From: Schmidtea polychroa | Taxonomy: Eukaryota | NCBI GenBank assembly: GCA_044892525.1 | Contig: CM097885.1 | Span: 992,001 to 1,056,000 of the forward strand | Direction of reading: 5' to 3' | Length of the DNA stretch: 64,000 nt | Shown: positions 1,439 to 57,021 of the stretch, in pieces | Layout of the letters: every line of letters begins with the position of its first letter | Numbering within the stretch: position 1 is the stretch's first letter | The notes under the pieces: generated by a model | The model's input: only the letters and a program-made list of their open reading frames with translations | What the model was told of the DNA's origin: nothing | The model's database searches: none | Position numbers and translations under genes: made by a program

Positions 1439-1455
1439 TTTTATTTTTTCTTAAA

Positions 1456-4822: not shown

Positions 4823-6655
4823 AATTAGATTTAAAGAATAATTACCTTTTCATTTAACACTACAGTGTTAATTCTTACCATTTTAGAATAATATTTTTTA
4901 TCAAAGTTCTTATCTTGATTTATTTAATTTTAATTGAAAGTAATGACGAAATAGAACGTGTTGTCTTCAATTTTAATGAATTAATTTGAAATATTATTTA
5001 GATAAATATTTGTGTTTAAGGTATTCCTTAGTAATATTTTTTTTAGAGTTGATGGTTTTTGTGAATTTTTATCATTTTCATGAATTTCATGTGGATAGAA
5101 TGAATATTTAAAAATTTTAAGTTAGTTCTAAGATAAATTTAATTAATTTCTTGATAATTGGATGCATTTTTATTGATTGGTTTTTTAATTTTAAATAAAA
5201 ATTATTTTTAATGACAGTTAGGTTATTAATCACGTGATAGGATATGACTTTGTAATAATATTTTTTTTCATATATTTTCTAAGAATTTCATGTAGATTTA
5301 TTTAAAAATTTAAAGTTTTAATGACGATTTTATTTGAATTTCTTGATAATTTGTTAAATTTTAAATAAAAATTAATTTTTTTTAATGACTGTTAGGTTAA
5401 TAATTAAGTAATTGGTTTAATTTTAGATGACTTTGTAATGCATTTGACTAAATAATTTTTTTCAATAATCTTCTAAGAATATTAACACATTGATGAACTT
5501 TTTTAAAAAAAACATAAGCTAAGAAACCAGTTAACCTTATAAAGAACTTTAAATTTACTTGATAATTTACAGAAATAATATACAAAATTTAATTTACAGA
5601 AATAATTTACAAAATAATAATACAGAAATTTATGATTAAGTTTGCTTTTATGAACAATCAATATATATCATCTCTAGTTAGGTATTTGATAGGTGAAATA
5701 TTTGTAGTAAATAATAAGTTTATTATGTCTTTGTTACATAACTCGACTTTAGCGTCAAAATGTGTTTTTAAAATAAATTTTAATTTTAAAATACGGCAAT
5801 GTAATATATTAATTTTTTCCTAACCTTCCTTGATTTTGATTGGTTAGAATTTGTTACTATAAACAATAATAATCTATAAACAATAATAATCTATAAACAA
5901 TAATCAATCATTAGTCACATTTAACAAATAATTAACCTTTAAAAATGAATTCTTTAATAGAAAACGTTATGAATGTTCGAGAAAAAATTCAGGAATTTGG
6001 TAAATTTTAATTTATTTATTAATTAATTTAGATAATATTATTGAAGACAATTTAAAATCTTTTATTTTTTCTTAAATTTTACATTTACATTATATTCTAA
6101 AAAGAGAGTTAATTATAACAATAATATTTCAATTTGTATAAAATTTTAATTAGTAATTATTCAATTTGAATAAAATATTTATTAGAAATTATTTAATTTA
6201 TTATAAAATAAAACGCTGTGTTAATTTTAAATAAACTGGATATTAATTTTTTGGAAAAAATAAATAAATAAAATAGTCTAAAAGATTAAATTATGGTCTA
6301 AAATTTAAAATTTAAAAATTGAAAATTGAAAATTAAAAACTAAACTAATCAAACTAAATCAAACGCTATAACCTTAATTCAAGAATTCACTAAAGTAGAT
6401 CAGAAGATATTAATTATCAAAATGTAACAAAGACTCTGAAATTCATCAATTTCATCTAATGACCTGGTGATATTCAATACCATTCTCAAGAATGCTAAAG
6501 TCGGGAATTCTTTGAATTTAACAATTTCATCTAACTATCCGGCGATATTCGATCCGATTCTATAAAGTATTTATCTTTGTAGTTGAATAAAAGTTTATTG
6601 TTGATTATAGTTTATCATTAATTATTTTTTTGTTAGGGGTGTTAAAGAAAATACT

Positions 6656-7078
6656 TGACTGATTCATTTTTCTCAGATAAAATTTGTTCTGTAATCGGGA
6701 AATTCAAGGATGAGAATAAAGGAAATCAATATAAAGAATGGGTGTTTCTTCGTCCCAAGTGCTACTCACTCCAAGGCGATAAAACACTCTAAAAGCCAAA
6801 GGAATAAGACTTACAAATTCTAATATCACCCATGAAGCTTATAAAAAAAGTGTATACTGATGGTGGAACAGTGAGCATCCCATTAAAAAAGAATAGGAAG
6901 TGTCAATCATCAGTTGTATACTTTCATGACAGAAAAACGAGCTCTCCAATGTTTGGACGATAAAAGGTATTGGTACAATTGTAATGAAAGCTATGCCTAC
7001 GGTCACTATAAGATTCGTCACATGCATATTGCAACTTCTATGTCTAGAAATGAATGCAAATCGAAACAAGCACTTTAA
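6656..7078 (+). pseudogene. pPolB C-terminal fragment (unit 2)
   Basis: Near-identical to 2035-2457. Confidence 0.9.
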
Positions 7079-10000: not shown

Positions 10001-11263
10001 TTTTTTTTAATGACTGTTAGGTTAATAATTAAGTAATTGGTTTAATTTTAGATGACTTTGTAATGCATTTGACTAAATAATTTTTTTCAATAATCTTCTA
10101 AGAATATTAACACATTGATGAACTTTTTTAAAAAAAACATAAGCTAAGAAACCAGTTAACCTTATAAAGAACTTTAAATTTACTTGATAATTTACAGAAA
10201 TAATATACAAAATTTAATTTACAGAAATAATTTACAAAATAATAATACAGAAATTTATGATTAAGTTTGCTTTTATGAACAATCAATATATATCATCTCT
10301 AGTTAGGTATTTGATAGGTGAAATATTTGTAGTAAATAATAAGTTTATTATGTCTTTGTTACATAACTCGACTTTAGCGTCAAAATGTGTTTTTAAAATA
10401 AATTTTAATTTTAAAATACGGCAATGTAATATATTAATTTTTTCCTAACCTTCCTTGATTTTGATTGGTTAGAATTTGTTACTATAAACAATAATAATCT
10501 ATAAACAATAATCAATCATTAGTCACATTTAACAAATAATTAACCTTTAAAAATGAATTCTTTAATAGAAAACGTTATGAATGTTCGAGAAAAAATTCAG
10601 GAATTTGGTAAATTTTAATTTATTTATTAATTAATTTAGATAATATTAATGATGACAATTTAAAATCTTTTATTTTTTCTTAAATTTTACATTTACATTA
10701 TATTCTAAAAAGAGAGTTAATTATAACAATAATATTTCAATTTGTATAAAATTTTAATTAGTAATTATTCAATTTGAATAAAATATTTATTAGAAATTAT
10801 TTAATTTATTATAAAATAAAACGCTGTGTTAATTTTAAATAAACTGGATATTAATTTTTTGGAAAAAATAAATAAATAAAATAGTCTAAAAGATTAAATT
10901 ATGGTCTAAAATTTAAAATTTAAAAATTGAAAATTGAAAATTAAAAACTAAACTAATCAAACTAAATCAAACGCTATAACCTTAATTCAAGAATTCACTA
11001 AAGTAGATCAGAAGATATTAATTATCAAAATGTAACAAAGACTCTGAAATTCATCAATTTCATCTAATGACCTGGTGATATTCAATACCATTCTCAAGAA
11101 TGCTAAAGTCGGGAATTCTTTGAATTTAACAATTTCATCTAACTATCCGGCGATATTCGATCCGATTCTATAAAGTATTTATCTTTGTAGTTGAATAAAA
11201 GTTTATTGTTGATTATAGTTTATCATTAATTATTTTTTTGTTAGGGGTGTTAAAGAAAATACT

Positions 11264-11686
11264 TGACTGATTCATTTTTCTCAGATAAAATTTGTTCTGT
11301 AATCGGGAAATTCAAGGATGAGAATAAAGGAAATCAATATAAAGAATGGGTGTTTCTTCGTCCCAAGTGCTACTCACTCCAAGGCGATAAAACACTCTAA
11401 AAGCCAAAGGAATAAGACTTACAAATTCTAATATCACCCATGAAGCTTATAAAAAAAGTGTATACTGATGGTGGAACAGTGAGCATCCCATTAAAAAAGA
11501 AAAGGAAGTGTCAATCATCAGTTGTATACTTTCATGACAGAAAAACGAGCTCTCCAATGTTTGGACGATAAAAGGTATTGGTACAATTGTAATGAAAGCT
11601 ATGCCTACGGTCACTATAAGATTCGTCACATGCATATTGCAACTTCTATGTCTAGAAATGAATGCAAATCGAAACAAGCACTTTAA
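11264..11686 (+). pseudogene. pPolB C-terminal fragment (unit 3)
   Basis: Near-identical to 2035-2457. Confidence 0.9.
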
Positions 11687-14600
11687 CAATTAAATTTATG
11701 TGAATAATAAAATATATATTGTGAATTATTTGACTTCGTTAATTAAAATATGTTTTATCATTTAATAATTCATTTGTCCAATTAATTTAGATAATTAGTT
11801 TTAAGTAAGAATTATTATTTATCATGAAAAACTTTGCTTTGTTTTGAAAAATTAATGCCCATTTTATTTTAAATTAACACAGCTTTATTTTATGATTATT
11901 ACTAATTAAAATTTTATTCAAATTGAAATATTATTGTTACAATTTACACTCTTGTTAGAATATATTAAATGTAAATGTAAAATAATAACAATAAAAAAAA
12001 AATAATAATAATAATAAATAAATTAAAATTAAATTAAAAAAAAATTAATTAAATAACGTAAGTAATTAAAATAAAATATTAATAAATAATTAATTAATTA
12101 AATGTAATAAATTGAAAATTAACTAAAGTAATTAATTAAAACAAAAAACATAATAAAATAATTAATTAATAAATTTTAAAAAAAAATTAAATAGTAGTAA
12201 TTAAATAAATTTAAAAAAAAAATAAATAGAAATGATTCTATTGACCTATATTTGACCTGGACATTGGGATGACCTTGAAAGTGTCCTGGAGTCCTCACTA
12301 TATACTACTAATTATAATCATAATTTTCTTTAATTTAACCCTTTATTTACTTAATTTAGCCCTTGTTTACCGAATATAGAAGTTTAAAATATAGACCATT
12401 GATTACATTAATTTAAAAATGTATCCCTTAATTTACATAATTTCCATCTAAAATTATTTCAAAAAAATTTTTTTTCTAAAATTGTCATTGAAAAATATTT
12501 CATAAAAGTTTTCATTTAAAATTTTCATTGAAAAATATTTCATAAAAATTTTTTTTAAAAATTATCTTAAAAATTATTCCATAAAAATTTTCATTAAAAA
12601 ATTTCAATTCTCAAACACCTTCTATTATTTTGTTAATAAATTTAAAATCTTACTTTAATTTGCTTATTACATTACTTATTTAAAAATTATTACTTTAATT
12701 TACTTATTTAAAATATTTGACCATTGATTACTTAATTTAAAAATTTGGACCTTAATTAACTTTAATTTAATTTTTAGAACCTTAATTTACTTTAATTTTA
12801 AATTTTGACCCTTAATTAACTTTAATTCAAAATTTGGACATTAATTGAAAATTTTAGACCATACTTTTCCATAAAATTGTCATTGAAAAAATTTTCATTT
12901 CTCAGGCGCCGTTTAGTAGGTGGTTAGGAGCCCGCTTCAAATGCAAGCCGTTTTTTTGCTGCAACATTTGATTGCGCAATTGTTGGAACTTGTTTTTTTT
13001 TCTATTGAAAATACTAGAAAAAAAAAATAATCGTAGCTTACTGTACAACAAAAAAAATGAGTTGCAACAATTGCGTAATCAAAATTTGCAGCAAAAAAAA
13101 AGTTGCCGCAGACCCCCTCCCCCCACCTAAAATTTTCAATTAAGGTCTTAAATTTTCAATTAAGTAATTAAAGTCTAAATTTCTCAATTACAGTAAATTA
13201 TGGTTCTAAAAAATTAAATTACAGTAAATTATGGTCCAAATTTTCAAAAACAGTAAATTATGGTATATATTTTAAAACTTAAGTAAATTAAGGTCTAAAA
13301 TTTAAAAGTAAAGTAAATTTCAATTAAGTAAAGTAAGGTCTAAAATTTTCAATTAAGGTCTAAAATTTTCAATTAAGTAATTAAAGTCTAAATTTCTCAA
13401 TTACAGTAAATTATGGTTCTAAAAAATTAAATTACAGTAAATTATGGTCCAAATTTTCAAAAACAGTAAATTATGGTATATATTTTAAAACTTAAGTAAA
13501 TTAAGGTCTAAAATTTAAAAGTAAAGTAAATTTCAATTAAGTAAAGTAAGGTCTAAAATTTTCAATTAAGGTCTAAAATTTTCAATTAAAGTAAATTAAG
13601 GTACAAATTTTGAATTAAAGTTAATTAAGGGTCAAAATTTAAAATTAAAGTAAATTAAGGTTCTAAAAAATTAAATTAAAGTTAATTAAGGTCCAAATTT
13701 TTAAATTAAGTAATCAATGGTCAAATATTTTAAATAAGTAAATTAAAGTAATAATTTTTAAATAAGTAATGTAATAAGCAAATTAAAGTAAGATTTTAAA
13801 TTTATTAACAAAATAATTGAAGGTGTTTGAGAATTGAAATTTTTTAATGAAAATTTTTATGAAATATTTTTCAATGACAATTTTAGAAAAAAAAATTTTT
13901 TGAAATAATTTTAGATGGAAATTATTTAAATTAAGGGATACATTTTTAAATTAAAGTAATCAATGATCTATATTTTAAACTTCTATATTCGGTAAACAAG
14001 GACTAAATTAAGTAAATAAAGGGTTAAATTAAAGAAAATTATGATTATAATTATAATTAGATTTAAAGAATAATTACCTTTTCATTTAACACTACAGTGT
14101 TAATTCTTACCATTTTAGAATAATATTTTTTATCAAAGTTCTTATCTTGATTTATTTAATTTTAATTGAAAGTAATGACGAAATAGAACGTGTTGTCTTC
14201 AATTTTAATGAATTAATTTGAAATATTATTTAGATAAATATTTGTGTTTAAGTTATTCCTTAGTAATATTTTTTTTAGAGTTGATGGTTTTTGTGAATTT
14301 TTATCATTTTCATGAATTTCATGTGGATAGAATGAATATTTAAAAATTTTAAGTTAGTTCTAAGATAAATTTAATTAATTTCTTGATAATTGGATGCATT
14401 TTTATTGATTGGTTTTTTAATTTTAAATAAAAATTATTTTTAATGACAGTTAGGTTATTAATCACGTGATAGGATATGACTTTGTAATAATATTTTTTTT
14501 CATATATTTTCTAAGAATTTCATGTAGATTTATTTAAAAATTTAAAGTTTTAATGACGATTTTATTTGAATTTCTTGATAATTTGTTAAATTTTAAATAA

Positions 14601-15870
14601 AAATTAATTTTTTTTAATGACTGTTAGGTTAATAATTAAGTAATTGGTTTAATTTTAGATGACTTTGTAATGCATTTGACTAAATAATTTTTTTCAATAA
14701 TCTTCTAAGAATATTAACACATTGATGAACTTTTTTAAAAAAAACATAAGCTAAGAAACCAGTTAACCTTATAAAGAACTTTAAATTTACTTGATAATTT
14801 ACAGAAATAATATACAAAATTTAATTTACAGAAATAATTTACAAAATAATAATACAGAAATTTATGATTAAGTTTGCTTTTATGAACAATCAATATATAT
14901 CATCTCTAGTTAGGTATTTGATAGGTGAAATATTTGTAGTAAATAATAAGTTTATTATGTCTTTGTTACATAACTCGACTTTAGCGTCAAAATGTGTTTT
15001 TAAAATAAATTTTAATTTTAAAATACGGCAATGTAATATATTAATTTTTTCCTAACCTTCCTTGATTTTGATTGGTTAGAATTTGTTATTATAACCAATA
15101 ATAATCTATAAACAATAATCAATCATTAGTCACATTTAACAAATAATTAACCTTTAAAAATGAATTCTTTAATAGAAAACGTTATGAATGTTCGAGAAAA
15201 AATTCAGGAATTTGGTAAATTTTAATTTATTTATTAATTAATTTAGATAATATTAATGATGACAATTTAAAATCTTTTATTTTTTCTTAAATTTTACATT
15301 TACATTATATTCTAAAAAGAGAGTTAATTATAACAATAATATTTCAATTTGTATAAAATTTTAATTAGTAATTATTCAATTTGAATAAAATATTTATTAG
15401 AAATTATTTAATTTATTATAAAATAAAACGCTGTGTTAATTTTAAATAAACTGGATATTAATTTTTTGGAAAAAATAAATAAATAAAATAGTCTAAAAGA
15501 TTAAATTATGGTCTAAAATTTAAAATTTAAAAATTGAAAATTGAAAATTAAAAACTAAACTAATCAAACTAAATCAAACGCTATAACCTTAATTCAAGAA
15601 TTCACTAAAGTAGATCAGAAGATATTAATTATCAAAATGTAACAAAGACTCTGAAATTCATCAATTTCATCTAATGACCTGGTGATATTCAATACCATTC
15701 TCAAGAATGCTAAAGTCGGGAATTCTTTGAATTTAACAATTTCATCTAACTATCCGGCGATATTCGATCCGATTCTATAAAGTATTTATCTTTGTAGTTG
15801 AATAAAAGTTTATTGTTGATTATAGTTTATCATTAATTATTTTTTTGTTAGGGGTGTTAAAGAAAATACT

Positions 15871-16293
15871 TGACTGATTCATTTTTCTCAGATAAAATTT
15901 GTTCTGTAATCGGGAAATTCAAGGATGAGAATAAAGGAAATCAATATAAAGAATGGGTGTTTCTTCGTCCCAAGTGCTACTCACTCCAAGGCGATAAAAC
16001 ACTCTAAAAGCCAAAGGAATAAGACTTACAAATTCTAATATCACCCATGAAGCTTATAAAAAAAGTGTATACTGATGGTGGAACAGTGAGCATCCCATTA
16101 AAAAAGAATAGGAAGTGTCAATCATCAGTTGTATACTTTCATGACAGAAAAACGAGCTCTCCAATGTTTGGACGATAAAAGGCATTGGTACAATTGTAAT
16201 GAAAGCTATGCCTACGGTCACTATAAGATTCGTCACATGCATATTGCAACTTCTATGTCTAGAAATGAATGCAAATCGAAACAAGGACTTTAA
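15871..16293 (+). pseudogene. pPolB C-terminal fragment (unit 4)
   Basis: Near-identical to 2035-2457. Confidence 0.9.
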
Positions 16294-19200
16294 CAATTAA
16301 ATTTATGTGAATAATAAAATATATATTGTGAATTATTTGACTTCGTTAATTAAAATATGTTTTATCATTTAATAATTCATTTGTCCAAATAATTTAGATA
16401 ATTAGTTTTAGGTAAGAATTATTATTTATCATGAAAAACTTTGCTTTGTTTTGAAAAATTAATGCCCATTTTATTTTAAATTAACACAGCTTTATTTTAT
16501 GATAATTACTAATTAAAATTTTATTCAAATTGAAATATTATTGTTACAATTTACACTTCTGTTAGAATATATTAAATGTAAATGTAAAATAATAACAATA
16601 AAAAAAACATAATAATAATAATAAATAAATAAAAATTAAATTAAAAAAAAAATTAATTAAATAACGTAAGTAATTAAAATAAAATATTAATAAATAATTA
16701 ATAAATTAAATGTAATAAATTGAAAATTAACTAAAGTAATTAATTAAAACAAAAAACATAATAAAATAATTAATTAATAAATTTAAAAAAAAAATTAAAT
16801 AGTAGTAATTAAATAAATTTTAAAAAAAAATAAATAGAAATGATTCTATTGACATATATTTGACCTGGACATTGGGATGACATTGAAAGTGTCCTGGAGT
16901 CCTCACTATATACTACTAATTATAATCATAATTTTCTTTAATTTAACCCTTTATTTACTTAATTTAGCCCTTGTTTACCGAATATAGAAGTTTAAAATAT
17001 AGACCATTGATTACATTAATTTAAAAATGTATCCCTTAATTTACATAATTTCCATCTAAAATTATTTCAAAAAAATTTTTTTTCTAAAATTGTCATTGAA
17101 AAATATTTCATAAAAGTTTTCATTTAAAATTTTCATTGAAAAATATTTCATAAAAATTTTTTTTAAAAATTATCTTAAAAATTATTCCAATAAAATTTTC
17201 ATTAAAAAATTTCAATTCTCAAACACCTTCTATTATTTTGTTAATAAATTTAAAATCTTACTTTAATTTGCTTATTACATTACTTATTTAAAAATTATTA
17301 CTTTAATTTACTTATTTAAAATATTTGACCATTGATTACTTAATTTAAAAATTTGGACCTTAATTAACTTTAATTTAATTTTTAGAACCTTAATTTACTT
17401 TAATTTTAAATTTTGACCCTTAATTAACTTTAATTCAAAATTTGGACATTAATTGAAAATTTTAGACCATACTTTTCCATAAAATTGTCATTGAAAAAAT
17501 TTTCATTTCTCAGGCGCCGTTTAGTAGGTGGTTAGGAGCCCGCTTCAAATGCAAGCCGTTTTTTTGCTGCAACATTTGATTGCGCAATTGTTGGAACTTG
17601 TTTTTTTTTCTATTGAAAATACTAGAAAAAAAAAATAATCGTAGCTTACTGTACAACAAAAAAAATGAGTTGCAACAATTGCGTAATCAAAATTTGCAGC
17701 AAAAAAAAAGTTGCCGCAGACCCCCCCCCCCCCCCTAAAATTTTCAATTAAGGTCTAAAATTTTCAATTAAGTAATTAAAGTCTAAATTTCTCAATTACA
17801 GTAAATTATGGTTCTAAAAAATTAAATTACAGTAAATTATGGTCCAAATTTTCAAAAACAGTAAATTATGGTATATATTTTAAAACTTAAGTAAATTAAG
17901 GTCTAAAATTTAAAAGTAAAGTAAATTTCAATTAAGTAAAGTAAGGTCTAAAATTTTCAATTAAGGTCTAAAATTTTCAATTAAAGTAAATTAAGGTACA
18001 AATTTTGAATTAAAGTTAATTAAGGGTCAAAATTTAAAATTAAAGTAAATTAAGGTTCTAAAAAATTAAATTAAAGTTAATTAAGGTCCAAATTTTTAAA
18101 TTAAGTAATCAATGGTCAAATATTTTAAATAAGTAAATTAAAGTAATAATTTTTAAATAAGTAATGTAATAAGCAAATTAAAGTAAGATTTTAAATTTAT
18201 TAACAAAATAATAGAAGGTGTTTGAGAATTGAAATTTTTTAATGAAAATTTTTATGAAATATTTTTCAATGACAATTTTAGAAAAAAAAATTTTTTGAAA
18301 TAATTTTAGATGGAAATTATTTAAATTAAGGGATACATTTTTAAATTAAAGTAATCAATGATCTATATTTTAAACTTCTATATTCGGTAAACAAGGACTA
18401 AATTAAGTAAATAAAGGGTTAAATTAAAGAAAATTATGATTATAATTATAATTAGATTTAAAGAATAATTACCTTTTCATATTACACTACAGTGTTAATT
18501 CTTACCATTTTAGAATAATATTTTTTATCAAAGTTCTTATCTTGATTTATTTAATTTTAATTGAAAGTAATGACGAAATAGAACGTGTTGTCTTCAATTT
18601 TAATGAATTAATTTGAAATATTATTTAGATAAATATTTGTGTTTAAGGTATTCCTTAGTAATATTTTTTTTAGAGTTGATGGTTTTTGTGAATTTTTATC
18701 ATTTTCATGAATTTCATGTGGATAGAATGAATATTTAAAAATTTTAAGTTAGTTCTAAGATAAATTTAATTAATTTCTTGATAATTGGATGCATTTTTAT
18801 TGATTGGTTTTTTAATTTTAAATAAAAATTATTTTTAATGACAGTTAGGTTAATAATCACGTGATAGGATATGACTTTGTAATAATATTTTTTTTCATAT
18901 ATTTTCTAAGAATTTCATGTAGATTTATTTAAAAATTTAAAGTTTTAATGACGATTTTATTTGAATTTCTTGATAATTTGTTAAATTTTAAATAAAAATT
19001 AATTTTTTTTAATGACTGTTAGGTTAATAATTAAGTAATTGGTTTAATTTTAGATGACTTTGTAATGCATTTGACTAAATAATTTTTTTCAATAATCTTC
19101 TAAGAATATTAACACATTGATGAACTTTTTTAAAAAAAACATAAGCTAAGAAACCAGTTAACCTTATAAAGAACTTTAAATTTACTTGATAATTTACAGA

Positions 19201-19616
19201 AATAATATACAAAATTTAATTTACAGAAATAATTTACAAAATAATAATACAGAAATTTATGATTAAGTTTGCTTTTATGAACAATCAATATATATCATCT
19301 CTAGTTAGGTATTTGATAGGTGAAATATTTGTAGTAAATAATAAGTTTATTATGTCTTTGTTACATAACTCGACTTTAGCGTCAAAATGTGTTTTTAAAA
19401 TAAATTTTAATTTTAAAATACGGCAATGTAATATATTAATTTTTTCCTAACCTTCCTTGATTTTGATTGGTTAGAATTTGTTACTATAAACAATAATAAT
19501 CTATAAACAATAATCAATCATTAGTCACATTTAACAAATAATTAACCTTTAAAAATGAATTCTTTAATAGAAAACGTTATGAATGTTCGAGAAAAAATTC
19601 AGGAATTTGGTAAATT

Positions 19617-21387: not shown

Positions 21388-22720
21388 ATGGAAACCAACA
21401 ATAATAATAATAATCGAGTATTGAGAGGTCTTTTGACTAACGGTAAATTATTATTATTTTTATTCGATTTTTATTATATTTTATTTTAGGACCGTTCGAC
21501 TGGTATGAAGTTACCGAAAACGATGCCATTTTAAATGTGGAAAATATCTTTGGTAAATTTAATATTTTAATTTTTATTAAATTAATTTTCATTACAGAAA
21601 ATGATAATAGCGACGATGATGTCGTTTTTCTTGGTCAAACGGCTGCCCCAGTTATTGATGTTGGGCAAAACAATGTTTTCAAAGAAAAAAGTACATTTAT
21701 TTTATTTTAATTTTTATTAAATTAATTTTCATTACAGAAAATGAAAATAGCGACGATGATGTCGTTTTTCTTGGACAAAGTGATGCCCCAGTTAATGATG
21801 TTGGGCAAAACAAGGTTATCAAAAAAAAAAGTAAATTTATTTTACTTTAGTAATTTATTTTTAAAAATTTTATTTTTTAGCGTTTAATGTTTCAAATGCC
21901 CCTTATTTCAATGTCGACATCGATGAAGACGAAAATAATAATAGTATGGAAGATTTTATGGAAAATGACTCTTCAAAGGTATCGGAAAATGAGTCTTCTG
22001 ATGTGGTGGACCGAATTCCTCATGACTCTTCGGAGGATGATTCTGACATTGAATCACAATGTAAGATATATTTATTTATTTTATATATATATATATTTTT
22101 TTTGATATTAAAATTTCGTAAACACTTTTTTAAATATTTTTGATAAAAATTTCTTTAATTTTTTGATGAAAATTTCTTAAATATTTTGATGAACCTTATG
22201 ATCAAACTTATGAAGAAAATGAATTATGAATTTATGAAGAAAATGATTTATGCCCAAATTATGAAGAAAATGATTTATGCCCAAATTATGATGATTTATG
22301 ATTTATGCCCAAATTATGAAGAAAATGATTTATGCCCAAATTATGATGATTTATGATTTATGCCAAAATTATGAAGAAAATGATTTATGCCCAAATTATG
22401 ATGATTTATGATTTATGCCCAAATTATGATTTATGATGAAAATGATTTATGATTTACGAAGAAAATGATTTATGCCCAAATTATGATGATTTATGATTTA
22501 TGACCAAAATTATGATGAAAATTATGATGAAAATGATTTATGACCAAAATTATGATGAAAATATGACCAAAATTATGATGAAAATGATGAAAATATGACG
22601 AAAATTATGAAGAAAATACTATGTTTTTGAAATATAATCAAAGTATTTAAAAAAGTGATTACAAAATTATAGTTATAAAATAAATCCTTGTAGTTTGCAA
22701 TGTGCATCTACAATAGTTAA

Positions 22721-22781
<61 letters not shown>

Positions 22782-23150
22782 TTAATAATAATAATATTAT
22801 TAATAATGTAGTCTACAGTAAGCATGTAGCTACATAGTAGTCTGCAGTGGGCATGCAGCTACTTCTCTTTAATATAAATAATAATAATGTAGTCTACAGT
22901 AAGCATGTAGCTACATAGTAGTCTGCAGTGGGCATGCAGCTACTTCTCTTTAATATAAATAATAATGTATTCTACAGTAAGCATGTAGCTACATAGTAGT
23001 CTGCAGTGGGCATGCAGCTACTTCTATTTAATATAATAATAATATAATAATAATAATAATAATATAAATAATCTGACCCTTCTACTGTAGTCTGCAGTGA
23101 GCATGCAGCTACATAGTAGTCTGCAGTGAGCATGCAGCTACTTCTCTTCA

Positions 23151-23238
<88 letters not shown>

Positions 23239-25421
23239 CTGACTCGTCTAATATTAAACATATTCATATAATAATCTGACCTATCTACTAAAATCTCTCT
23301 AATATTCTCTCGAATATATTAACCTATTTTCTATAAGGATTTATCATCATTTGTTATATAGTTCATTTGAATTAAATAACAAATGATGATAAATCCTTAT
23401 AGATGTAACAATTAATAACAATTAGAAAAAGAATAAAACTTTAATTTTATTATTTAACAGGTAGACTATATCCGAACTATTGTCAAACATCAATTGGACA
23501 TAGCGATAAATGTCATCGAACAATGAAAAAGTATTATAGAAAGACGTTTAATTCGCTCAACTTTTTTATATGCCCCAAATGTGTAACGAGCGAAAAAATA
23601 AAATATAGGGAATTTTTTAATAAACATCATAGTCACTTAGGGCAATTTTCGATATCAAAAAATGTTTTATTTAAAAAAATAAATAAAAAAAAATTACAAA
23701 AAAATTTATCAAAAAATTTACCAAAAAATACTATTAAAAAAGATATAAAAAAAGATATTAAAAAAGATTTAAAAAATATTAAAAAAAATATTATAAAAGA
23801 AAAAACAGATTCTATTAAAAAAGATGCTATTATTATTAAAAAAGATACTATAAATATTATTAAAAAAGATATTATAAATATTAAAAAAGATTCTATTAAA
23901 AGACCTGCTGGTTTAATTAAAAATTGCATTCCTAATAAATTATCGCGACCTGAAGTGATAGTCATCAGCAAAGATGAATGTGTAGCTTCAACATCGTTCA
24001 CACAGCATGCACCCTCTACACAACAAGCACCCTCTACACAACAAGCACCCTCTACACAACAAGAAGTGATAGTCATCAATGATGAATGTGTAGCTTCAAC
24101 GTCTTTCAACATATGTCAAATAGGCGGCTCTTTGTTTGAACCTATGGTAGAATCCGATTTGAACGGATCGCGTAAAACTTTAAAATTTGATATTAGAAAT
24201 CAAAACTTAGTAAAAATAGCCCTAACATCAAAAATTGAAGATAGATTAATAGAGGAAATAGAAAAGATGGGCAATGTAAAAATTCAATTCACAATTTTAA
24301 TTAAATTTGAAAAAGATGGGGAGATCCGGGATAATTATTTTTCAAACAATGCTCAAGTTTTTACATCAAACTTTATAAACGAGGGGGTGAGCAAATTAAA
24401 TGAAAAGATTGAGCAATTCACCTATTTAGGAAGCGGGTGGCGAGTAATGAATATTTTAGAAATAGATTTTATTTTAACGAAATACGCACCCGTTAGTAGA
24501 TTATCCGGACATAGCTATATAAAAACCCCATCAGCATTAAAATTAAAACATGCAATAATTAATGTTAAAAACAACGACCATAAGTGCTTCTTGTATAGCA
24601 TTCTTGCACTTTTAAAAAGAGAAGAAATAGGTCGTAATCACCAAAGAGCCGCTAAATATATAGAATTTTTACCTCTATTAAATTATGACGAAGACAGCGA
24701 TTGCCCGATGAGGCTATGCAACATTCCCAAATTTGAAAGAAAAAATAGAGATTTAAACTTGAGCATAAACGTTCTGTCTTATAATCCAGCCAGTTCTGAT
24801 TTAGATATTTCTGAGGATTATGTAGCTCACCACCCTCATCTTAATATAGTACATCGCTCCAAGGTTATAGACGGTAGACCAATTTATTTATTACTTTTGA
24901 GTAATAAAGATAAATATCATTATACAGCCGTGACAGACTTGGACAAATTAATGAATTGTCATGAAAATGAAAATGTAAATGTTCAAATAAAGTGTAACTG
25001 GTGCCCACATTGCTTAAATGGCTTTAGATATAAGAATGCTTTCGATCAGCATGTTGCTCTATGCTGTAAAAATCAGACTGGCACAACTTTGTATACACTT
25101 CCTAAAAATAAAGATTTATTATTCACAGATTACGCAAAAACCGTTACACCTCCCTTCGTAATTTATGCCGATTTTGAATCGGTTTTACCAGAACATGAAA
25201 CATATCATCAAATACATTTACCCATATCAGCAGGTCTTTTATTAATTAATAATTATACACACACTAAATTTTATTATTATTTTTTTGGACCTAATTGTAT
25301 TTTGGATTTTTTGAGGAAAGTGGAGGAAATTGCTGTCACAATTGTCCTGCCATATTACGAACTTGAAGGTCATAAAGGCATGTCCGATGATTTAATGAAC
25401 TCGTGCTCAATTTATATATAA
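21388..25421 (+). CDS. Spliced pPolB N-terminal gene (lineage A), ending shortly after the first exonuclease motif; exons 21388-21442, 21490-21552, 21598-21690, 21738-21830, 21881-22060, 23461-25421
   Basis: The 632 aa ORF has Polinton-type pPolB motifs: LGSGW, SGHSYIKTP..IINVKNNDHKCFLYSILA, HY, CPHCLNGF..H..C and PPFVIYADFES. The upstream exons are joined by five phase-1 GT-AG introns (47, 45, 47, 50, 1400 nt) that keep the frame open. The pPolB identity is strong; the exon model is inferred. Confidence 0.85.
22190..22620. repeat. Degenerate minisatellite (TATGAAGAAAATGATTTATGCCCAAAT-like) in the predicted long intron
   Basis: Direct tandem repetition. Confidence 0.85.
22721..23238. repeat. 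(AAT)n tracts flanking four ~60 bp palindrome-rich repeats (22806-23146)
   Basis: Unit ATGTAGTCTACAGTAAGCATGTAGCTACATAGTAGTCTGCAGTGGGCATGCAGCTACTTCT, four copies. Confidence 0.9.
23330..23403. other. Perfect 28 bp-stem hairpin with an 18 nt partly paired loop
   Basis: TCTATAAGGATTTATCATCATTTGTTAT (23330-23357) is the exact reverse complement of 23376-23403. Confidence 0.9.
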
Positions 25422-25448
25422 AGACTAATTTTCATAAATGATTTAATA

Positions 25449-25886
25449 ATGTTAGCAAATATAAATTATCGAGGAAATTTTGATGTATCGAATATGAGGT
25501 TCCCACCAGGGAAACCCCAGCAAATTATCGATAGAAGTGGGAAATATCCGATAATATTTTTCAAGACTGGTAAATGCCGAATCATGGGATGTAAGAAACC
25601 TTTGGATATTAATAAATTACAATATCGAATAAATAATATTACAATCCAATCAATTACCGTTACTATGGATATGGGACATAGTATCAATCTATATAACATG
25701 TCGAAAAAATGTGATTGTATGTTTGAACCGGAATTGTTTCCGGCACTAAGACTATTAAAATATAACCCTATATGTGTCAACGTGTTTGCTAGTGGAAATG
25801 TTGTCATGTTGGGGTTGAGAAATTTGGAGTATAGAGAATTTGTTGACAATGTTCGAAATGAGATAATTTCATTGGTCGATTTCTAA
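25449..25886 (+). CDS. Divergent TATA-box-binding protein (TBP)-like protein, 145 aa
   Basis: Two TBP-repeat signatures: IIFFKTGKCRIMGCK (cf. LIFSSGKMVCTGAK) and FEPELFPAL...VNVFASGNVVMLG (cf. YEPELFPGL...LIFVSGKVVLTG). TATATATAAA lies just upstream at 25413. Confidence 0.88.
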   Translation: MLANINYRGNFDVSNMRFPPGKPQQIIDRSGKYPIIFFKTGKCRIMGCKKPLDINKLQYRINNITIQSITVTMDMGHSINLYNMSKKCDCMFEPELFPALRLLKYNPICVNVFASGNVVMLGLRNLEYREFVDNVRNEIISLVDF

Positions 25887-25963
25887 TTGGTTAATTTCTT
25901 ATTGGTTATTGATTGATTTAAACAAACGGTTTTTGTTTAGAATTCATTTTTTTTTTCAACATC

Positions 25964-26318
25964 ATGTACAAATTACCAAGCTCTGCAAACCTCATGAAGG
26001 ATATCGACGATTACGGTAAATTTTAAATTTTTATTTTCACATTATTTACTATTTATTATTTTAGAAAAATATTTAGATGTAATGATCAATACACTCAAAT
26101 ACTATTATCCTCAAATTATTGAAATCATCAAGGATCGAGAAGCAGAAATAATTCCGGACCTCATTTTCTACTCAACCCAAATAAGAATTATGGAGGTATT
26201 CCATCAATTCTTATGGGATATAAAGATTAACAGAACAGTGAAAGAAATGAAGCCGGAATATCAATGTATGTTCGGATGTTCCTGCTGTGCCGATCGATAT
26301 CGGCGATATGTGGAATGA
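25964..26318 (+). CDS. Hypothetical 101 aa protein with Cys-rich C-terminus; exons 25964-26015 and 26065-26318
   Basis: A 49 nt phase-1 GT-AG intron joins MYKLPSSANLMKDIDDY in frame to the 78 aa ORF ending CMFGCSCCADRYRRYVE. ATTGG boxes lie upstream and AATAAA downstream. Confidence 0.7.
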
Positions 26319-26658
26319 AAGTTAGTGAAAACTCTGAGAAGGTTTCACTACTCCCGGATTGTAGATAAATATCAATAAATGTATTTTTGTATTGAGTTTT
26401 TTTTTTATATTTGATGTAGAATTAGAAATAATAATAATAATAATAATAATATAAATAATAGAATTAGAAATAATAATAATAGAAGTAATGATAGTAATAA
26501 TAAAACATTAATAATATGTACATTAATAGAACATAAATGCAGCATTAATGCAAATGAAATGCAAATTTAAACAAAGACATACTGTAATCTGATTGGTTGA
26601 TAGGCATGAGTCAAAGGTATAAAAACCCTGTAACATTTAAATTTATTCATTATTCACG

Positions 26659-27069
26659 ATGACCAAGAAAATTTCAAGCACCGAAAAACCTAAAGAAATG
26701 GTACAACCAGTTCAAATGTTCCACAACTACAAAATGTATTTTTTGAAAGAAGAAATCAATATGAAATTGGTTGCACCAGTCAAGCTAATTCCGACTAAAT
26801 TCGAATTCTTATCCGGCACGCTTTCAATGATTGATGTCAAAACTATTGATGATGTTTTTAAACGGATAGATTCGAATCTATCGTGTAATCAACATGCATG
26901 GTTCAACAATAGATATGCAAGATTTTATGATGCTTTTGATGAAATCAGTTTCAAAGAAAATGAAAATTGGTATATAACAATAGCAATCCAGGGATATAAA
27001 GTTGATAATAATGATGTATATTCTCCTATTTGGAAAATTATGTCTGCTAGACTTTCACAAGTATTTTAA
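26659..27069 (+). CDS. Hypothetical 136 aa protein (possibly an OB-fold ssDNA-binding protein)
   Basis: Intact ORF with GATTGGTT (26591), TATAAAA (26618) and a TCATT initiator-like site upstream, and AATAAA downstream. The fold is a weak guess. Confidence 0.7.
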   Translation: MTKKISSTEKPKEMVQPVQMFHNYKMYFLKEEINMKLVAPVKLIPTKFEFLSGTLSMIDVKTIDDVFKRIDSNLSCNQHAWFNNRYARFYDAFDEISFKENENWYITIAIQGYKVDNNDVYSPIWKIMSARLSQVF

Positions 27070-27195
27070 TGTTATATTTAATAAATGTATTAGTCAGATT
27101 TGTTTTTCTCTTTATTAATTGCAACATAAATGCAAATGACATGGAAATTTAACAAAGAAAATCTATAAACAAAATTATAATATAGTTTTAAAGTG

Positions 27196-27593
27196 ATGAA
27201 AATGACTGCAGAAAAAGGTTAACATGATTAATTAATTACCGAATTATTTATTATTTAGAATTTTTAATCAACTTTTTGTTGGAAAAGTTAGCAGAAATAT
27301 CTGGTGTGAAAATTGAGGACATATTATCTATTACAAATGCCTTAAATATCGGCTGGTTAGTTGAGAGTCAAGATACAGGATTTGATGATGAGGAAGAAAC
27401 TCAAGAAACCGATACTCAAGAAATTGATGAGGAAATCTATGAACCTATAGATGAACCTATAGAGGAACCTATAGAGGAACCTATAGAGGAACCTAAAGAT
27501 GAATCTAAAGATAATATTACGAATGATTGTATTGATCATGTCGTTGAAAATATAATGAAATGTGGAGATGACGACTGCGAATGTGTTAATTAA
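27196..27593 (+). CDS. Small acidic hypothetical protein with EEPI repeats; exons 27196-27217 and 27259-27593
   Basis: A 41 nt phase-1 GT-AG intron supplies an ATG to the otherwise ATG-less 105 aa ORF. AATAAA immediately follows the stop. Confidence 0.6.
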
Positions 27594-27676
27594 TAAATCT
27601 TAGTTAATTAGTGTTTGTAAATTTATTTAAAATGTTATTTAAAAATTTATTTAAAAATCAAACAAAAATAACTATA

Positions 27677-28197
27677 TTAATTTTTATTTAAAAATCTGGT
27701 TAAAATATACAAAATAGCAACACCTGTTGCAAGTTTTACATAGTTTTTAAATTTTCTTTTCTGATCATCAATTTCCTTCGCATTTCTGGCGAGTTGATTG
27801 AGTAGTCCCCATCCGCCATTGGCTTCAATCCATGGTTGAAACTTTGACTTGATTATCTAGAAAATAAATATTAATAAAATATAAATTATAAAAGTATTAC
27901 TTCTTGAGACCACTGATAATAGTGCTCTGAGTCCCATAGACTTCTTTGGATTATTATTTTCATATAAGCGAACCCTATTAGTATTCGGGTCCACTTCATC
28001 TGATCGTCGCATAGACAGTTAAAAATTCTATTAAAATAGAATTTTTTGGTTTCGAGACAATCAGAATTGATCACATCTTCATAATCAATGTGATTACCTT
28101 CTATAATCTTTTCGGTCCGATCGACCAGGAAACAGAGGCTTTCCATAATATTCCTGTTGACGAGTTCTCTTAAAAGATTTTCCATAAATTGAGACAT
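27677..28197 (-). CDS. Bcl-2 family protein, 158 aa; exons 28197-27901 and 27856-27677
   Basis: Exon 1 has BH1-like FNRIFNCLCDDQMKWTRILIGFAYM. A 44 nt phase-0 GT-AG intron (27857-27900) leads to IIKSKFQPWIEANGGW (BH2) and the hydrophobic tail VKLATGVAILYILTRFLNKN*. Confidence 0.88.
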
Positions 28198-28302
28198 TTT
28201 TACAATAATTTAAAATATGATGTTTTATTTATACTAATACCGGATGATTTTGATTGGTTGATAAACTATAAATGTAAAAGAAAGGTTTTGATTTGATACA
28301 CC

Positions 28303-28800
28303 ATGAAAACTATATTCATATTGCTAATTATTATAACGAGTGTGTGCTCACACAATACAACAATAACAGTGGAGTCTTTTAATAAATCAATATGTGTTTG
28401 TCCGAATACAGCCAAGTTGATGGATATTTTATATATTCTGGACAAACCAAAATGGTCAAAGCATCCAGGAAAAAGAATATCTCAAAGATTGGAGAATTTA
28501 GAAAACAGTTATGAACTATCATTTGAATATATACAAAATATAAAATTTGAATTGATTGATCATATTAAGGTTTTCAATAACTCTATTGTTGAAAATAAAA
28601 TGAATATGAAAATAATTGATAAGAAGCATGATTATTTGTTAAAAAAGATTGAATTATTATTAAGAGAAATTCAAACAATCAAAGGATCAATAGAATCTCT
28701 GAAAATCAATTCTACGTTACCAATTTCAAACAATATTGCTGCGAATAGTACATCAATATTTAGTTTACCTTTGTTAATTTTACATTATTTTATTGTTTAA
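28303..28800 (+). CDS. Predicted secreted/surface coiled-coil glycoprotein with a GPI-signal-like C-terminus, 165 aa
   Basis: Signal-peptide-like MKTIFILLIIITSVCS, several N-x-S/T sequons, a heptad-rich middle and the hydrophobic end SIFSLPLLILHYFIV*. GATTGGTT (28252) and TATAAA (28267) lie upstream. Confidence 0.7.
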   Translation: MKTIFILLIIITSVCSHNTTITVESFNKSICVCPNTAKLMDILYILDKPKWSKHPGKRISQRLENLENSYELSFEYIQNIKFELIDHIKVFNNSIVENKMNMKIIDKKHDYLLKKIELLLREIQTIKGSIESLKINSTLPISNNIAANSTSIFSLPLLILHYFIV

Positions 28801-28920
28801 ATAAATGTATGTTTTGTTGATTTGTTGAGCGTGACCAGTACCCTTGTAAGCATTACCCATAGGGGGACAAAATATTTTGTCGGATAGACTAGGAGTATAT
28901 AGACTCGGAGTATATAGATT

Positions 28921-29040
<120 letters not shown>

Positions 29041-29194
29041 AATATATGGCTCATTCGAAAGGTCTTGGATTGAGCTTTAAAATGAGCTATCGATTATTAA
29101 TTTTCGTTGGCGAGAACTTTGAACAAATTAAAAATAAAATAATAATATTTTTAAAAATAATAATAAAAATAATAATATTTTTTAAAAATAATAA

Positions 29195-29745
29195 TATGAC
29201 CTTGGGAATGACCTTGAAAATTCTGATGAGTCATCGGATGAGTCATATGACCTTGAAAATTTTCAATGAGTCATAGTATGACTCACGTGACCTTGAAAAT
29301 GACCTTGGTGAGTCATAGGATGAGTCAGATGACCCTGTGAAAATTTTTTCAAGGGCATATGACTCATACTATGACTCATATGACCTTGAAAATGTCCTTG
29401 ATGAGACATAGGATGAGTCATGGCCTTCGTTTAAATGACCTTGAAAATTTTGATGAGTCATACTATGAGTCATATGACCTTGGGGAAAATTTCCATGGCC
29501 ACATGAGTCATAGTATGAGTCATATGACCTTGAAAGTGACCTTGATGAGTCATGGACTTTGTTTAAATGACCTTGAAAAATTTTTTGACCTTGATGCTTT
29601 ATATTATGAGTCATACGACCTTGAAAATGACCTTGATGAGTCATAGGATGAGTCATGGTCTTTGTTTAAATGGCCTTGAGAAATTTGATGAGTCATACTA
29701 TGAGTCATGGTCTTTGTTTCAATGACCTTGATGAGTCATATGTCT
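29195..29745. promoter_or_regulatory. Subterminal array of ~20 TGA(G/C)TCA (AP-1 consensus) and over a dozen TGACCTTG (NR5A/ERR-type) motifs
   Basis: The motifs are seen directly. A regulatory role is inferred. Confidence 0.6.
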
Positions 29746-29790
29746 TTGTTTTACTTTTAGACTTAGCATATTTTTGAAAAATATGACGAC

Positions 29791-29832
29791 CGGGGGGGGG
29801 GTACTGTGCTAGCGGTGCCCAATCCATCTACT
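29791..29832 (-). mobile_element. Putative Polinton-type terminus (5'-AGTAGATGGATTGGGCACCGCT on the minus strand)
   Basis: It begins AGTAG, resembles AGTAGGTGGTTAGGAGCCCGCT at 3683, and marks an abrupt junction to unrelated sequence. Confidence 0.5.
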
Positions 29833-54632: not shown

Positions 54633-57021
54633 CATCAGTTAAATTTTAAATAAAAATTAATTTTTTTTTAATGACTGTTAGGTTAATAATTAAGTAATTG
54701 GTTTAATTTTAGAAGACTTTGAAATGCATTTGACTAAATAATTTTTTCAATAATTTTCTAAGAATATTAACACATTGATGAACTTTTTTAAAAAAACATA
54801 AGCTAAGAAACCAGTTAACCTTATCAAGAACTTTAAATTTACTTGATAATTTACAGAAATAATATACAAAATTTAATTTACAGAAATAATTTACAAAATA
54901 ATAATACAGAAATTTATGATTAAGTTTGCTTTTATGAACAATCAATATATATCATCTCTAGTTAGGTATTTGATAGGTGAAATATTTGTAGTAAATAATA
55001 AGTTTATTATGTCTTTGTTACATAACTCGACTTTAGCGTCAAAATGTGTTTTTAAAATAAATTTTAATTTTAAAATACCGCAATGTAATATATTAATTTT
55101 TTCCTACCCTTCCTTGATTTTGATTGGTTAGAATTTGTTCCTATAAACAATAATAATCTATAAAAAATAATAATCTATAAACAATAATCAATCATTAGTC
55201 ACATTTAACAAATAATTAACCTTTAAAAATGAATTCTTTAATAGAAAACGTTATGAATGTTCGAGAAAAAATTCAGGAATTTGGTAAAATTTAATTTATT
55301 TATTAATTAATTTATTAATTAATTTAGATAATATTAATGAAGACAATTTAAAATCGAAGATTAAAGGAAATTTGAAAAGAAAAAGTAAACATAATTTTTA
55401 ATTTATTAATTTAATTAATTAATAATTTAGGTAATACGAATAAAGAGAAAAAATATGTCAATGTGTCAATAAATCGAAATGAAAATTTACAATGTAAGTT
55501 TTGATTACATTTTATAATTTAAAGGAAATTTAATATAATTTTTTATTTAAGTAAATGTTAATATTTTTAATTTAGTAAATTTTTATATTTTAGTAAATAA
55601 AATTTGTAAAATAATAATAATTTGCAAATTTTTGCGTAAACATTTATTAAAATCTTTCATTTAAATTATATTTTTTAAATAAATTTTTATTTTATAGGTA
55701 TACTTTATCCAAATTATTGTTCATCGAAAAAACATGATAATAATTGCCATTCTATAATGGAGAATTACTACACGAAAAAATATTATAATAAAACTTATTT
55801 TATATGTCCCGTATGAAAGACTAGTGACCCTGTAACATATAGCGTTTTTTATAATAAACATAAAAATCATTTAGATAGGTTTAATTTAAAAAAAGATAGT
55901 GTTTTTAAAAGACCCTCAACTATAGAAAAAAATAATACAAATAAAAAAATTAAATTAGATACTTCTTCTTTTGAATCCCAGGTCGGATTAGAGGTTGAAT
56001 CCCAGGCTGGATTGTCTTTTGTTGAATTCCAGGTCGGATTGTCTTTTGTTGAATCCAATGATGGATTGGTTGTTGAATCCCAGGACGGATTGTCTTTTGT
56101 TGAATCCCAGGTTGGATTGGTTGTTGAATCCCAGGTCGGATTGTCTTTTGTTGAATCCCAGGTTGGATTGCCTTTTGTTGAATCCAATGATGGATTGGTT
56201 GTTGAATCCCGGGTCGGATTGCCTTTTGTTGAATGCCAGGTCGGATTGGTTGTTGAATCCAATGATGAATTATTCACTTCCTTTGATTCTTGGGATGGAT
56301 TTAATATAATACAAATAGGTGGAAATGTATCGACAGTACAAAGAGATTTAAGAGGTACCCATCAAATATTAAGCTTAAATACAGCGACTTAAATATAAAA
56401 GAAGTAATATTTCCTGAACAACTAATAATAAAATTACGAGATATTATTAACGAATAAGGCTCCGTCAAAATTCAATTCGGAATAATAATCGAATTTGAAA
56501 AAGACGGGGAAATAAAGGTTAATAATATCTCAAATTATGCAAAGCCTTTAACTGCATCATTTTTTGATCAAGGCATTAAGGAACTAAATGAGAAAATTAC
56601 TAATATTACTGAGTTAGGAAGCAGTTGGAATATAAAAAATATTACTGAAATACATTTCACCATAACAAAAATAAGTAGGTTAAGTTGATTAAGTGGTAGG
56701 AGTTTCATTGAAACACCTACTTATCTAAAAAATAAATATTGTTTAATTAATATAAAAAACACTGATGATTCATGTTTTCTATATAGCATTTTAGCTATTT
56801 TAAAATATGATGAAGTTAGTAGTTATGCTAGAAATAGGACATCGAGTTATAATTTATCTGACTTAGTATACGACCCTTTAGAATTACCTATGAAATTAAA
56901 AGACATTAGGAAATTTGAATCTAAAAATTCGGGTTTAATAATTAATGTTTTTTCATATGATAATAGCAAACAATTAACTGATAATTATGTATTAAAACAT
57001 TCACATTTAGAATTTATACAT

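Follow-up and report, generated by a model that had tools for sequence, protein, structure and literature searches.

Are the polymerase genes of Polintons (Mavericks) always uninterrupted, or can their 5′ ends be assembled by splicing in the host nucleus? The question is raised by 64,000 nt of the Schmidtea polychroa genome (GCA_044892525.1, contig CM097885.1, positions 992,001 to 1,056,000, forward strand; hereafter the window), in which the gene for a family B DNA polymerase of the protein-primed kind (pPolB) of each of two Polinton families, A and B, is preceded by a chain of short exons (Table 1). A preliminary description, made from the sequence, had proposed multi-exon 5′ ends with exclusively phase-1 introns for both genes and had called this unusual for Polintons. 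The latter view agrees with two published accounts as far as their available parts go: intact vertebrate Mavericks lack introns (PMC8097293), and nematode Maverick core genes are called intronless, with introns in cargo genes only (10.1101/2022.07.12.499685). Families A and B depart from this property, which is descriptive and not definitional. The explanation that we favor, and consider likely as a whole, is a host-spliced leader whose last intron was inherited from the ancestor of A and B and whose 5′ end is otherwise labile.

Exon–intron layout of the A and B leaders

Recomputing the coordinates, splice-site dinucleotides and phases bore out the multi-exon model at both loci. The introns of family A number five, of 47, 45, 47, 50 and 1400 nt. 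Those of family B number three and measure 44, 46 and 204 nt, and phase 1 is common to all of them; the several short introns of 44–50 nt proposed for each gene are four in A, but only two in B. All eight combine GT...AG ends with an AT/pyrimidine-rich acceptor, as expected of U2-type spliceosomal introns, and the short A introns have a GC content of 8–11%, compared with 31–38% in the leader exons. In both families the final intron interrupts a cysteine codon (T/GT) ahead of the sequence xLYPNYC, and the junction leads, as had been described, into a cysteine- and histidine-rich YPNYC module. Retention would bring in an in-frame stop for four of the five A introns and all three B introns. The main frame is open for just 6–7 codons 5′ of the acceptors and has no methionine there; the first in-frame Met past the acceptor is residue 21 in A and 20 in B, beyond the first C-C-H-C set of the module. 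A promoter-like GATTGG...TATAAA set stands 70 nt (A) and 81 nt (B) ahead of the ATG, and the same arrangement occurs before a gene at 26659; those before A and B presumably serve as the pPolB promoters. In the window A copy, the match to full copies ends at ~25384, short of the HNH and polymerase domains, and the copy then runs on into left-arm genes of the element; the B copy has an in-frame stop at 55814–55816.

The region is repeat-rich, with a GC content of 18–26%, and on these grounds the exon chains might be a chance reading of AT-rich repetitive DNA. A phase-free walk from 2228 ATGs on both strands of the window found 30 with an open exon and, directly behind it, a GT..AG intron that is short and AT-rich. 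Chains of at least two exons started from nine, and all nine lie inside the A and B leaders. The restriction of chains to the two leaders, the frame-keeping length changes among copies and the exact GT..AG skip described below contradict a chance origin, which we regard as extremely improbable.

Variation in the leader among copies

Genome-wide matches were drawn from the 781-Mb assembly. The 20 A leaders compared were the window copy, three from tiled regions and 16 chosen out of 48 matches spanning the identity range; 18 were walked with a common start anchor and the other two, which have a different one, separately. Length variants of exons and introns were tallied by hand, with the window A copy as reference. 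Every intron is in phase 1 in all 20 copies, and in 19 the leader is stop-free and in phase with the main exon. First exons measure 46 or 55 nt, internal exons 63, 75, 93, 99, 105, 111, 120, 171, 180, 189, 198, 207 or 231 nt and short introns 42–50 nt; the long intron spans 1390–1608 nt (four copies, including that in the window). Two features reported as common to A and B hold in part. A first exon of 55 nt is found in both window copies, whereas within A half of the copies (10 of 20) have 55 nt and half 46 nt. At the last junction the split cysteine codon stands but the CAA before it does not, with CAAT/GT in nine A copies and GAAT/GT in 11.

All 11 distinct exon-length variants in A are multiples of three, compared with none of eight intron variants (Fisher p = 1.3e-5, an optimistic value, as the variants often stem from 3n-periodic repeats and are not fully independent). 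Alleles of exon 2 differ by six synonymous and four non-synonymous codons, too few to judge. Family B is more uniform: among 17 rows, 14 were distinct complete leaders (two duplicates; one cut by the locus end), and all 14 share exons of 55, 57 and 63 nt and short introns of 44 and 46 nt. Their last intron measures 204 or 205 nt, and in one of them exon 1 contains a stop.

The intron-plus-exon unit represented by exons 3 and 4 of A (140 nt) occurs twice in the window, and there are four such exons in copies L043 and L046. This difference shows that symmetric exons have been duplicated in A. Symmetric exons had been expected to permit skipping or duplication; the second has taken place, and no instance of the first was observed.

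RNA-like contigs over the B leader

The RNA check covered positions 55050–55950 of family B, because the A intron contains long repeats. No run is on record as RNA; the RNA status of runs X1, X2 and X9 is presumed. One 219-nt contig of X1 (depth 5.6) lacks exactly 55385–55430, a GT..AG interval corresponding to the second B intron; the same joint is absent from 4756 aligned records of run X3. A second X1 contig starts exactly at the acceptor 55698 and a third includes 18 nt of the intron, a pattern that a branch between spliced and unspliced forms might produce. X2 has no cover over the leader and X9 no matches, and neither was counted as evidence. An X2 contig does lie over the main exon (55684–55912), with poly-T in front of 55684, which suggests antisense or internally primed RNA at the start of the B main exon. 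One short B intron has direct but thin RNA support.

Several observations in the same data, along with the limits of the frame count given above, weigh against splicing of the leader to the polymerase. The 219-nt contig retains B intron 1 (a stretch flagged as repeat-affected) and leaves the exon-3 donor into 28 letters unlike the main exon, which are unmatched in the window at up to three mismatches and in the genome search at one mismatch. No contig joins B exon 3 to the main exon, and the 204-nt skip is not listed; the last B junction (55493/55698), for which an RNA check had been proposed, was therefore not seen. The joint of intron 2 comes from the single contig of depth 5.6, and taking X1 for RNA is a guess.

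A different arrangement might account for these gaps, with the leader exons belonging to a separate short transcript or joined to another exon and translation of the polymerase beginning at a Met in the main exon or in some other exon upstream. The exit of the only RNA-like contig at the B exon-3 donor into unrelated sequence and the unlisted 204-nt skip speak for it, as do database proteins called from a Met in mid-module (P0030, P0033, P0034, P0038 and P0040). Against it, 19 of 20 A leaders run without a stop and meet the main exon in phase, and the long introns contain no ATTGG/CCAAT box (that of A has four TATAAA, in repeats). A start at Met 20–21 would moreover lose C, C, H and C residues that are conserved in A, B and their relatives, and the loose 28 letters had no match in the genome search, as expected if the contig is chimeric or if they come from a host exon next to an insertion that this assembly lacks. 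We give this arrangement little credence. Because length changes keep the frame in 20 A copies and an RNA-like contig lacks one B intron, the introns of both leaders are very probably real and spliceosomal.

Leader peptides and possible control by splicing

The leaders encode 58–160 aa of low complexity. That of A is acidic (37 D/E and 10 K/R in 157 aa) and that of B basic (7 D/E and 12 K/R in 56 aa). Among 15 pairs of A and B leader exons, the best (A exon 5 and B exon 3, p = 0.0145) is not significant after correction; a weak match, YxNVxIxxxEN, links the last leader exon of A with that of B. Each repeated A exon carries the motif DDDVVFL, and two VIVI motifs follow further on in the A main exon; we take these to resemble SUMO-interacting motifs. 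A loose motif scan gave three matches in the 1094-aa polymerase body and none in the B leader.

The P element is controlled by splicing, and intron-bearing RNA can be protected from silencing. The leader introns might likewise act as a control device, with retention or the skipping of symmetric exons gating the polymerase or the number of SUMO-binding-like motifs, for instance in response to PIWI-interacting RNA or to the state of the cell; this would be compatible with the explanation that we favor, but we think it unlikely. Retention yields a stop in seven of eight introns, one contig retains B intron 1 with intron 2 removed, DDDVVFL-type motifs sit in each duplicated A exon with two VIVI in the main exon, and Polintons are PIWI targets in a planarian according to the accessible part of PMC8532177. 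Yet the B leader is basic and has no SUMO-like motif, the same loose scan scores its three matches in the polymerase body, two relatives and a third family (C, below) lack leader introns, a partly spliced contig is equally expected from ordinary pre-mRNA, and no exon skipping was seen.

The zinc module and the polymerase domains

The cysteine completed at the last junction is the first of a putative zinc module (Table 1) and an aligned position in the relatives. Over the 70 aa past the junction A and B are 45% identical, and over 1065 aa of the polymerase body 60%. An unindexed search found 43 representative proteins that match the module at E <=0.001, of which at least P0039 is a chance match. 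Word-indexed searches returned nothing, either with B residues 20–330 (4707 candidates) or with a two-row module alignment against longer proteins (111 candidates); as the unindexed search gave 43, these blanks reflect sensitivity. A search of the ESM Atlas for relatives gave no match at >=0.9, and among the 43 database proteins, with P0041 left out, none has its module joined to a leader of the A or B type.

The fold of the module is predicted with a score of 76 in the predicted local-distance difference test (pLDDT). No Pfam family matches more than two of 21 members, and comparison with known folds gave no significant match (best Foldseek E 1.4, a Kaiso finger; best Z 3.4, Serrate). Two or three tandem copies of the module are present in P0001, P0002, P0003, P0008, P0009, P0027 and P0043. 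The short matches P0013, P0017, P0019, P0024, P0025, P0031, P0036 and P0042 end past the module in apparent intron run-through, which, with the same pattern in the DNA of loci L054 and L096, suggests that the module is often an exon of its own.

Beyond the module, terminal-protein (TP)-like, vOTU, exonuclease and palm domains follow in the expected order within a single frame of 1289 aa. The protein-primed family B polymerase family PF03175 matches window B fragments with E down to 3.9e-12, and an endonuclease-VII/HNH-like insert matches PF02945 at E 0.0004–0.007, under the curated cut-off. In the vOTU-like domain Cys 291 is invariant and His 395 near-invariant (32 rows). A predicted model of B main-exon residues 128–517 (pLDDT 79) has as its best BFVD match the N-terminus of pPolB from Drosophila-associated adintovirus 2 (E 1.6e-24) and weak matches in the PDB to Y-family polymerases (E 0.01–0.02); the TP domain is related to the Y-family polymerase fold in the accessible text of 10.1101/2024.03.18.585575. 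By the architecture given there, the TP domain would start ~140 codons into the B main exon. The introns, which had been assigned to the TP region, accordingly precede that domain.

Age of the shared intron

Relatives were scanned at 83 loci (72 JGI metagenome loci, eight viral contigs and three from the S. polychroa genome). The zinc module is present in six (L050, L052, L053, L054, L057 and L096) and absent from all eight viral contigs. The intron chains in these relatives are predictions from DNA, and run stop-free into the main frame. In L054, three phase-1 introns (45, 53 and 49 nt) lie 3′ of the module. L096 shows two there, of 45 and 62 nt and also in phase 1, and may have a phase-0 intron behind a lone ATG. 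L052 carries one phase-1 intron within the module and four phase-0 introns (42–46 nt) 3′ of it. A single intron of 121 nt separates two module copies in L057. L050 and L053 have none: each reads without a stop from its own ATG, through 505 and 578 aa, respectively. In none of the six is the first Cys codon split by an intron, the 5′ end being missing from L057. That cysteine is residue 3–8 after the Met in 19 of 20 database proteins with an N-terminal match (19 of the 43 matches and one cluster member), which were called regardless of introns, upstream exons being possible. The comparison of related loci that had been suggested as a check on conserved intron positions yielded introns elsewhere in four of six and none in two, and with leaders that share no significant similarity, the idea of an ancestral architecture in the wide sense is not supported across the zinc-module relatives.

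A narrower ancestry does find support. A 27-row tree of the TP-vOTU region unites the module-bearing elements in one clade (100/99). In a 16-row tree spanning ~1100 aa, with short fragments omitted (among them P0034, P0006, P0023 and L096), A and B form a clade at 99.9/97 and the intronless L053 is sister to the three-intron L054/L055 at 100/100. A and B are 59.7% identical, compared with at most 52.2% to others. Given that A and B are sisters at 99.9/97, both probably inherited the Cys-splitting intron, and from no ancestor older than that of A+B. This is tempered by the 27-row tree, which lacks an A+B clade (14% of bootstrap trees) and places B with P0034 at 84/89, and by P0034 being too short to enter the 16-row tree.

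The intron might instead have been gained twice, in A and in B, at a favorable site just past an old start codon. Leaders without detectable homology (the p = 0.0145 of the best of 15 exon pairs; opposite charge), introns that are labile across the clade and the absence of A+B resolution in the 27-row tree would fit two gains. The same codon and phase in the mutually closest families (59.7% versus <=52.2%; 99.9/97), the lack of an intron there in six of six outside relatives and the weak YxNVxIxxxEN match between the last leader exons do not, and we consider a double gain improbable.

Element context and neighboring DNA

Family A is abundant, with all 96 scored matches (of 12,622 candidates) 98–100% identical and many frames of ~1350 aa. 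In the tiled copy L025 an integrase open reading frame (ORF) matches rve (E 3.6e-5, under the cut-off) and Chromo (E 3.4e-4), and a packaging ATPase ORF passes the cut-off with its match to Pox_A32 (E 3.7e-7). The capsid position, between integrase and pPolB, is taken by two ORFs (360 and 427 aa) that have no Pfam match. Two of three tiled copies have inverted, matching ends with identical 6-nt flanks (6-bp target duplications), and the third has one end visible. At L011:2776-3155 there is a miniature element of 380 bp, whose ends are of the A type and which shows a duplication of 6 bp.

In family B all 40 scored matches are 97–100% identical, many of them as outward-facing pairs, about a dozen in number. 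Both tiled B elements are palindromes of 14–15 kb. Each comprises a pair of pPolB arms that face outward, are ~5.9 kb long (with 99.6% identity between the arms of one element) and are bounded by inverted ends and 6-bp target duplications; inside neither was an integrase, ATPase, capsid or other long ORF found. Such a palindrome may be a snap-back derivative that supplies polymerase and needs integrase in trans.

A third abundant family, C (L048, L049 and L019; 78 scored matches, many frames of 1452 aa), has a pPolB with its own ATG and ordinary C2H2 fingers, and no acceptor-like site within 120 nt upstream. In L048 this gene lies 3′ of accessory genes resembling the A left-arm block.

That block occupies window positions 25385–29832, after the broken pPolB and in inverted order relative to the tiled full copies. 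It includes a TBP-like ORF (25422–25886; Pfam E 2e-14) and a Bcl-2-like ORF (27886–28209; E 0.006) and ends at the element terminus, 29832. Accessory genes at 25964–26318 (+) and 27886–28209 (−) have a short first exon and an AT-rich intron of 44–49 nt, and one at 27203–27593 (+) probably has the same layout; host-type splicing in the element therefore extends beyond pPolB in two accessory genes.

The long A intron was considered as a site for a further coding exon, which was rejected because its satellite mixes 27- and 28-nt units and so shifts frame. A 78–81 nt repeat with palindromic parts in the same intron (22792–23150) is 68% like L021:1721-2117, a stretch just 3′ of pPolB in full A copies. 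Elsewhere in the window, positions 1–19600 are a 4.6-kb tandem array, a macrosatellite made of the B 5′ end plus spacer, each unit with the B promoter-like box, exon 1 and intron 1 (ATGs at 1324, 5945, 10553, 15160 and 19555). A non-LTR (long terminal repeat) reverse-transcriptase element (RVT_1; 41521–46638, −) interrupts Polinton fragments, and a DNA-transposase-like ORF pair (57234–59094, −; weak DUF4371, named by reading) lies inside the B polymerase gene.

Table 1 Positions of leader, promoter-like and main-exon features in the window, with the tiled B palindromes
Feature	Position	Strand	Remark
A promoter-like GATTGG...TATAAA	21226..21317	+	70 nt 5′ of ATG; putative function
A exon 1	21388..21442	+	55 nt (46 nt in half of copies)
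A intron 1	21443..21489	+	47 nt, phase 1
A exon 2	21490..21552	+	63 nt in 20 of 20 copies
A intron 2	21553..21597	+	45 nt, phase 1; frame stays open if retained
A exon 3	21598..21690	+	93 nt, acidic, DDDVVFL motif
A intron 3	21691..21737	+	47 nt, phase 1
A exon 4	21738..21830	+	93 nt, tandem duplicate of exon 3
140-nt tandem repeat	21563..21849	+	2.0 copies, 92% matches; the intron-plus-exon unit
A intron 4	21831..21880	+	50 nt, phase 1
A exon 5	21881..22060	+	180 nt (120–207 nt elsewhere), acidic; last base is base 1 of Cys codon
A long intron	22061..23460	+	1400 nt, phase 1, filled with mini- and microsatellites
A main exon start, zinc module	23461..23672	+	C-x6-C-x5-H-x3-C ... CPxC ... H-x2-H; putative metal binding
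A main exon, this copy	23461..25421	+	zinc module, low-complexity linker, TP-like and vOTU-like domains from ~24150
B promoter-like GATTGG...TATAAA	55122..55147	+	81 nt 5′ of ATG
B exon 1	55229..55283	+	55 nt
B intron 1	55284..55327	+	44 nt, phase 1; retained in the sole RNA-like contig covering it
B exon 2	55328..55384	+	57 nt, basic
B intron 2	55385..55430	+	46 nt, phase 1; skipped exactly in one X1 contig
B exon 3	55431..55493	+	63 nt; last base is base 1 of Cys codon
B long intron	55494..55697	+	phase 1; 204 nt, in some copies 205; no contig seen with it spliced out
B main exon start with zinc module	55698..56392	+	in-frame stop 55814–55816 in this copy
B palindromes	L012/L013 (G000:C1 ~228.728-228.743 Mb) and L016/L017

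Discussion

The observations can be joined in the following scheme. Families A and B would be sister Polinton/Maverick families in which pPolB is transcribed in the nucleus from a CCAAT/TATA-like promoter 5′ of exon 1. The host spliceosome would remove the short AT-rich GT-AG introns, as seen for one in B and supposed for the remainder, and so place the leader ahead of the zinc module and the terminal-protein, vOTU, exonuclease/HNH and palm domains. The last splice would complete the first cysteine of the module; as the intron splits that codon, the whole module needs this splice. On the simplest reading, the Cys-splitting intron and the leader upstream of it arose in the A+B ancestor. The leader evolves fast: its repeats change in ways that keep the frame, and whole intron-plus-exon units are duplicated in tandem, as shown in A. 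Serial duplication combined with the need to keep frame would explain the uniform phase (L052 is uniform likewise, in phase 0). Across the wider zinc-module clade, the 5′ end of pPolB would have gained or lost short introns repeatedly at differing positions, as a weakly constrained extension that tolerates them. In the cleavage model set out in the available part of 10.1101/2024.03.18.585575, vOTU cleavage would leave leader and module on the TP fragment.

A bolder version sees the pPolB N-terminus in one clade of animal Polintons as built from exons, with symmetric mini-exons bearing host-binding motifs (SUMO-interacting-like in A) added, duplicated and moved to either side of the module, and with the Cys-completing splice tying the replicase to the splicing state of the host, for example to control by PIWI-interacting RNA (piRNA) or differentiation. 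We offer this as speculation and consider it unlikely.

Elements of family A encode an integrase and a packaging ATPase, have ends that are inverted and are flanked by target duplications of 6 bp, and the polymerases share with the Polinton/adintovirus-type TP-vOTU-EXO-PALM pPolB, as the consulted parts of 10.1101/2024.03.18.585575 and PMC8502044 present it, a single polypeptide, a TP-like fold, the vOTU Cys/His pair, an exonuclease and a palm. Unlike the pPolB described there, A and B add a multi-exon leader and a zinc module without library match before the TP domain. The endonuclease-VII/HNH-like insert, matched under cut-off, recalls pPolB2 of nematode and oomycete Polintons (10.1101/2023.08.22.554363), an account in whose accessible portion 'intron' refers to group I introns and a spliced pPolB is not described.

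Two other systems invite comparison, each from a partly accessible source. Adenovirus E2B (pTP and Ad-pol; PMC11304566) is a related protein-primed module in which short 5′ exons lead to a long terminal coding exon; there, however, shared 5′ exons alternate between two genes, whereas here TP and polymerase form one frame and the leader is coding. We view the resemblance as an analogy that does not indicate common descent of the introns. Dinoflagellate maverick-polinton-like elements (PMC11957031) likewise have spliceosomal introns inside Polinton-like proviruses. Those introners are dispersed intron-generating transposons, mostly acquired after integration, whereas the A/B introns are inherited with the element across its many copies and are clustered at the 5′ end; the sole multiplication seen in A and B is tandem duplication.

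No description of a spliced pPolB from an animal Polinton was found in a search that left out most subscription papers, Repbase and supplements, and the available parts of PMC12220804, PMC6431247 and 10.64898/2026.07.28.741253 contain nothing on the subject. The additions made here are a test of frame-keeping across copies, the duplication of exons, a single junction in an RNA-like contig and outside relatives in which intron positions prove labile.

Polinton core genes have been treated as single ORFs, so that annotation by ORF truncates these polymerases at the N-terminus and passes over the zinc module, which is specific to their clade and has no library match. Families that are present in many copies and differ in their leaders provide a natural series for the study of intron gain and exon duplication. 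Spliceosomal introns inherited in the replicase gene would imply that, as with adenoviruses, transcription and processing of these elements take place in the nucleus of the host. Splicing, if it is regulated, would be a point at which control of Polinton activity could be tested, in an animal in which Polintons are PIWI targets.

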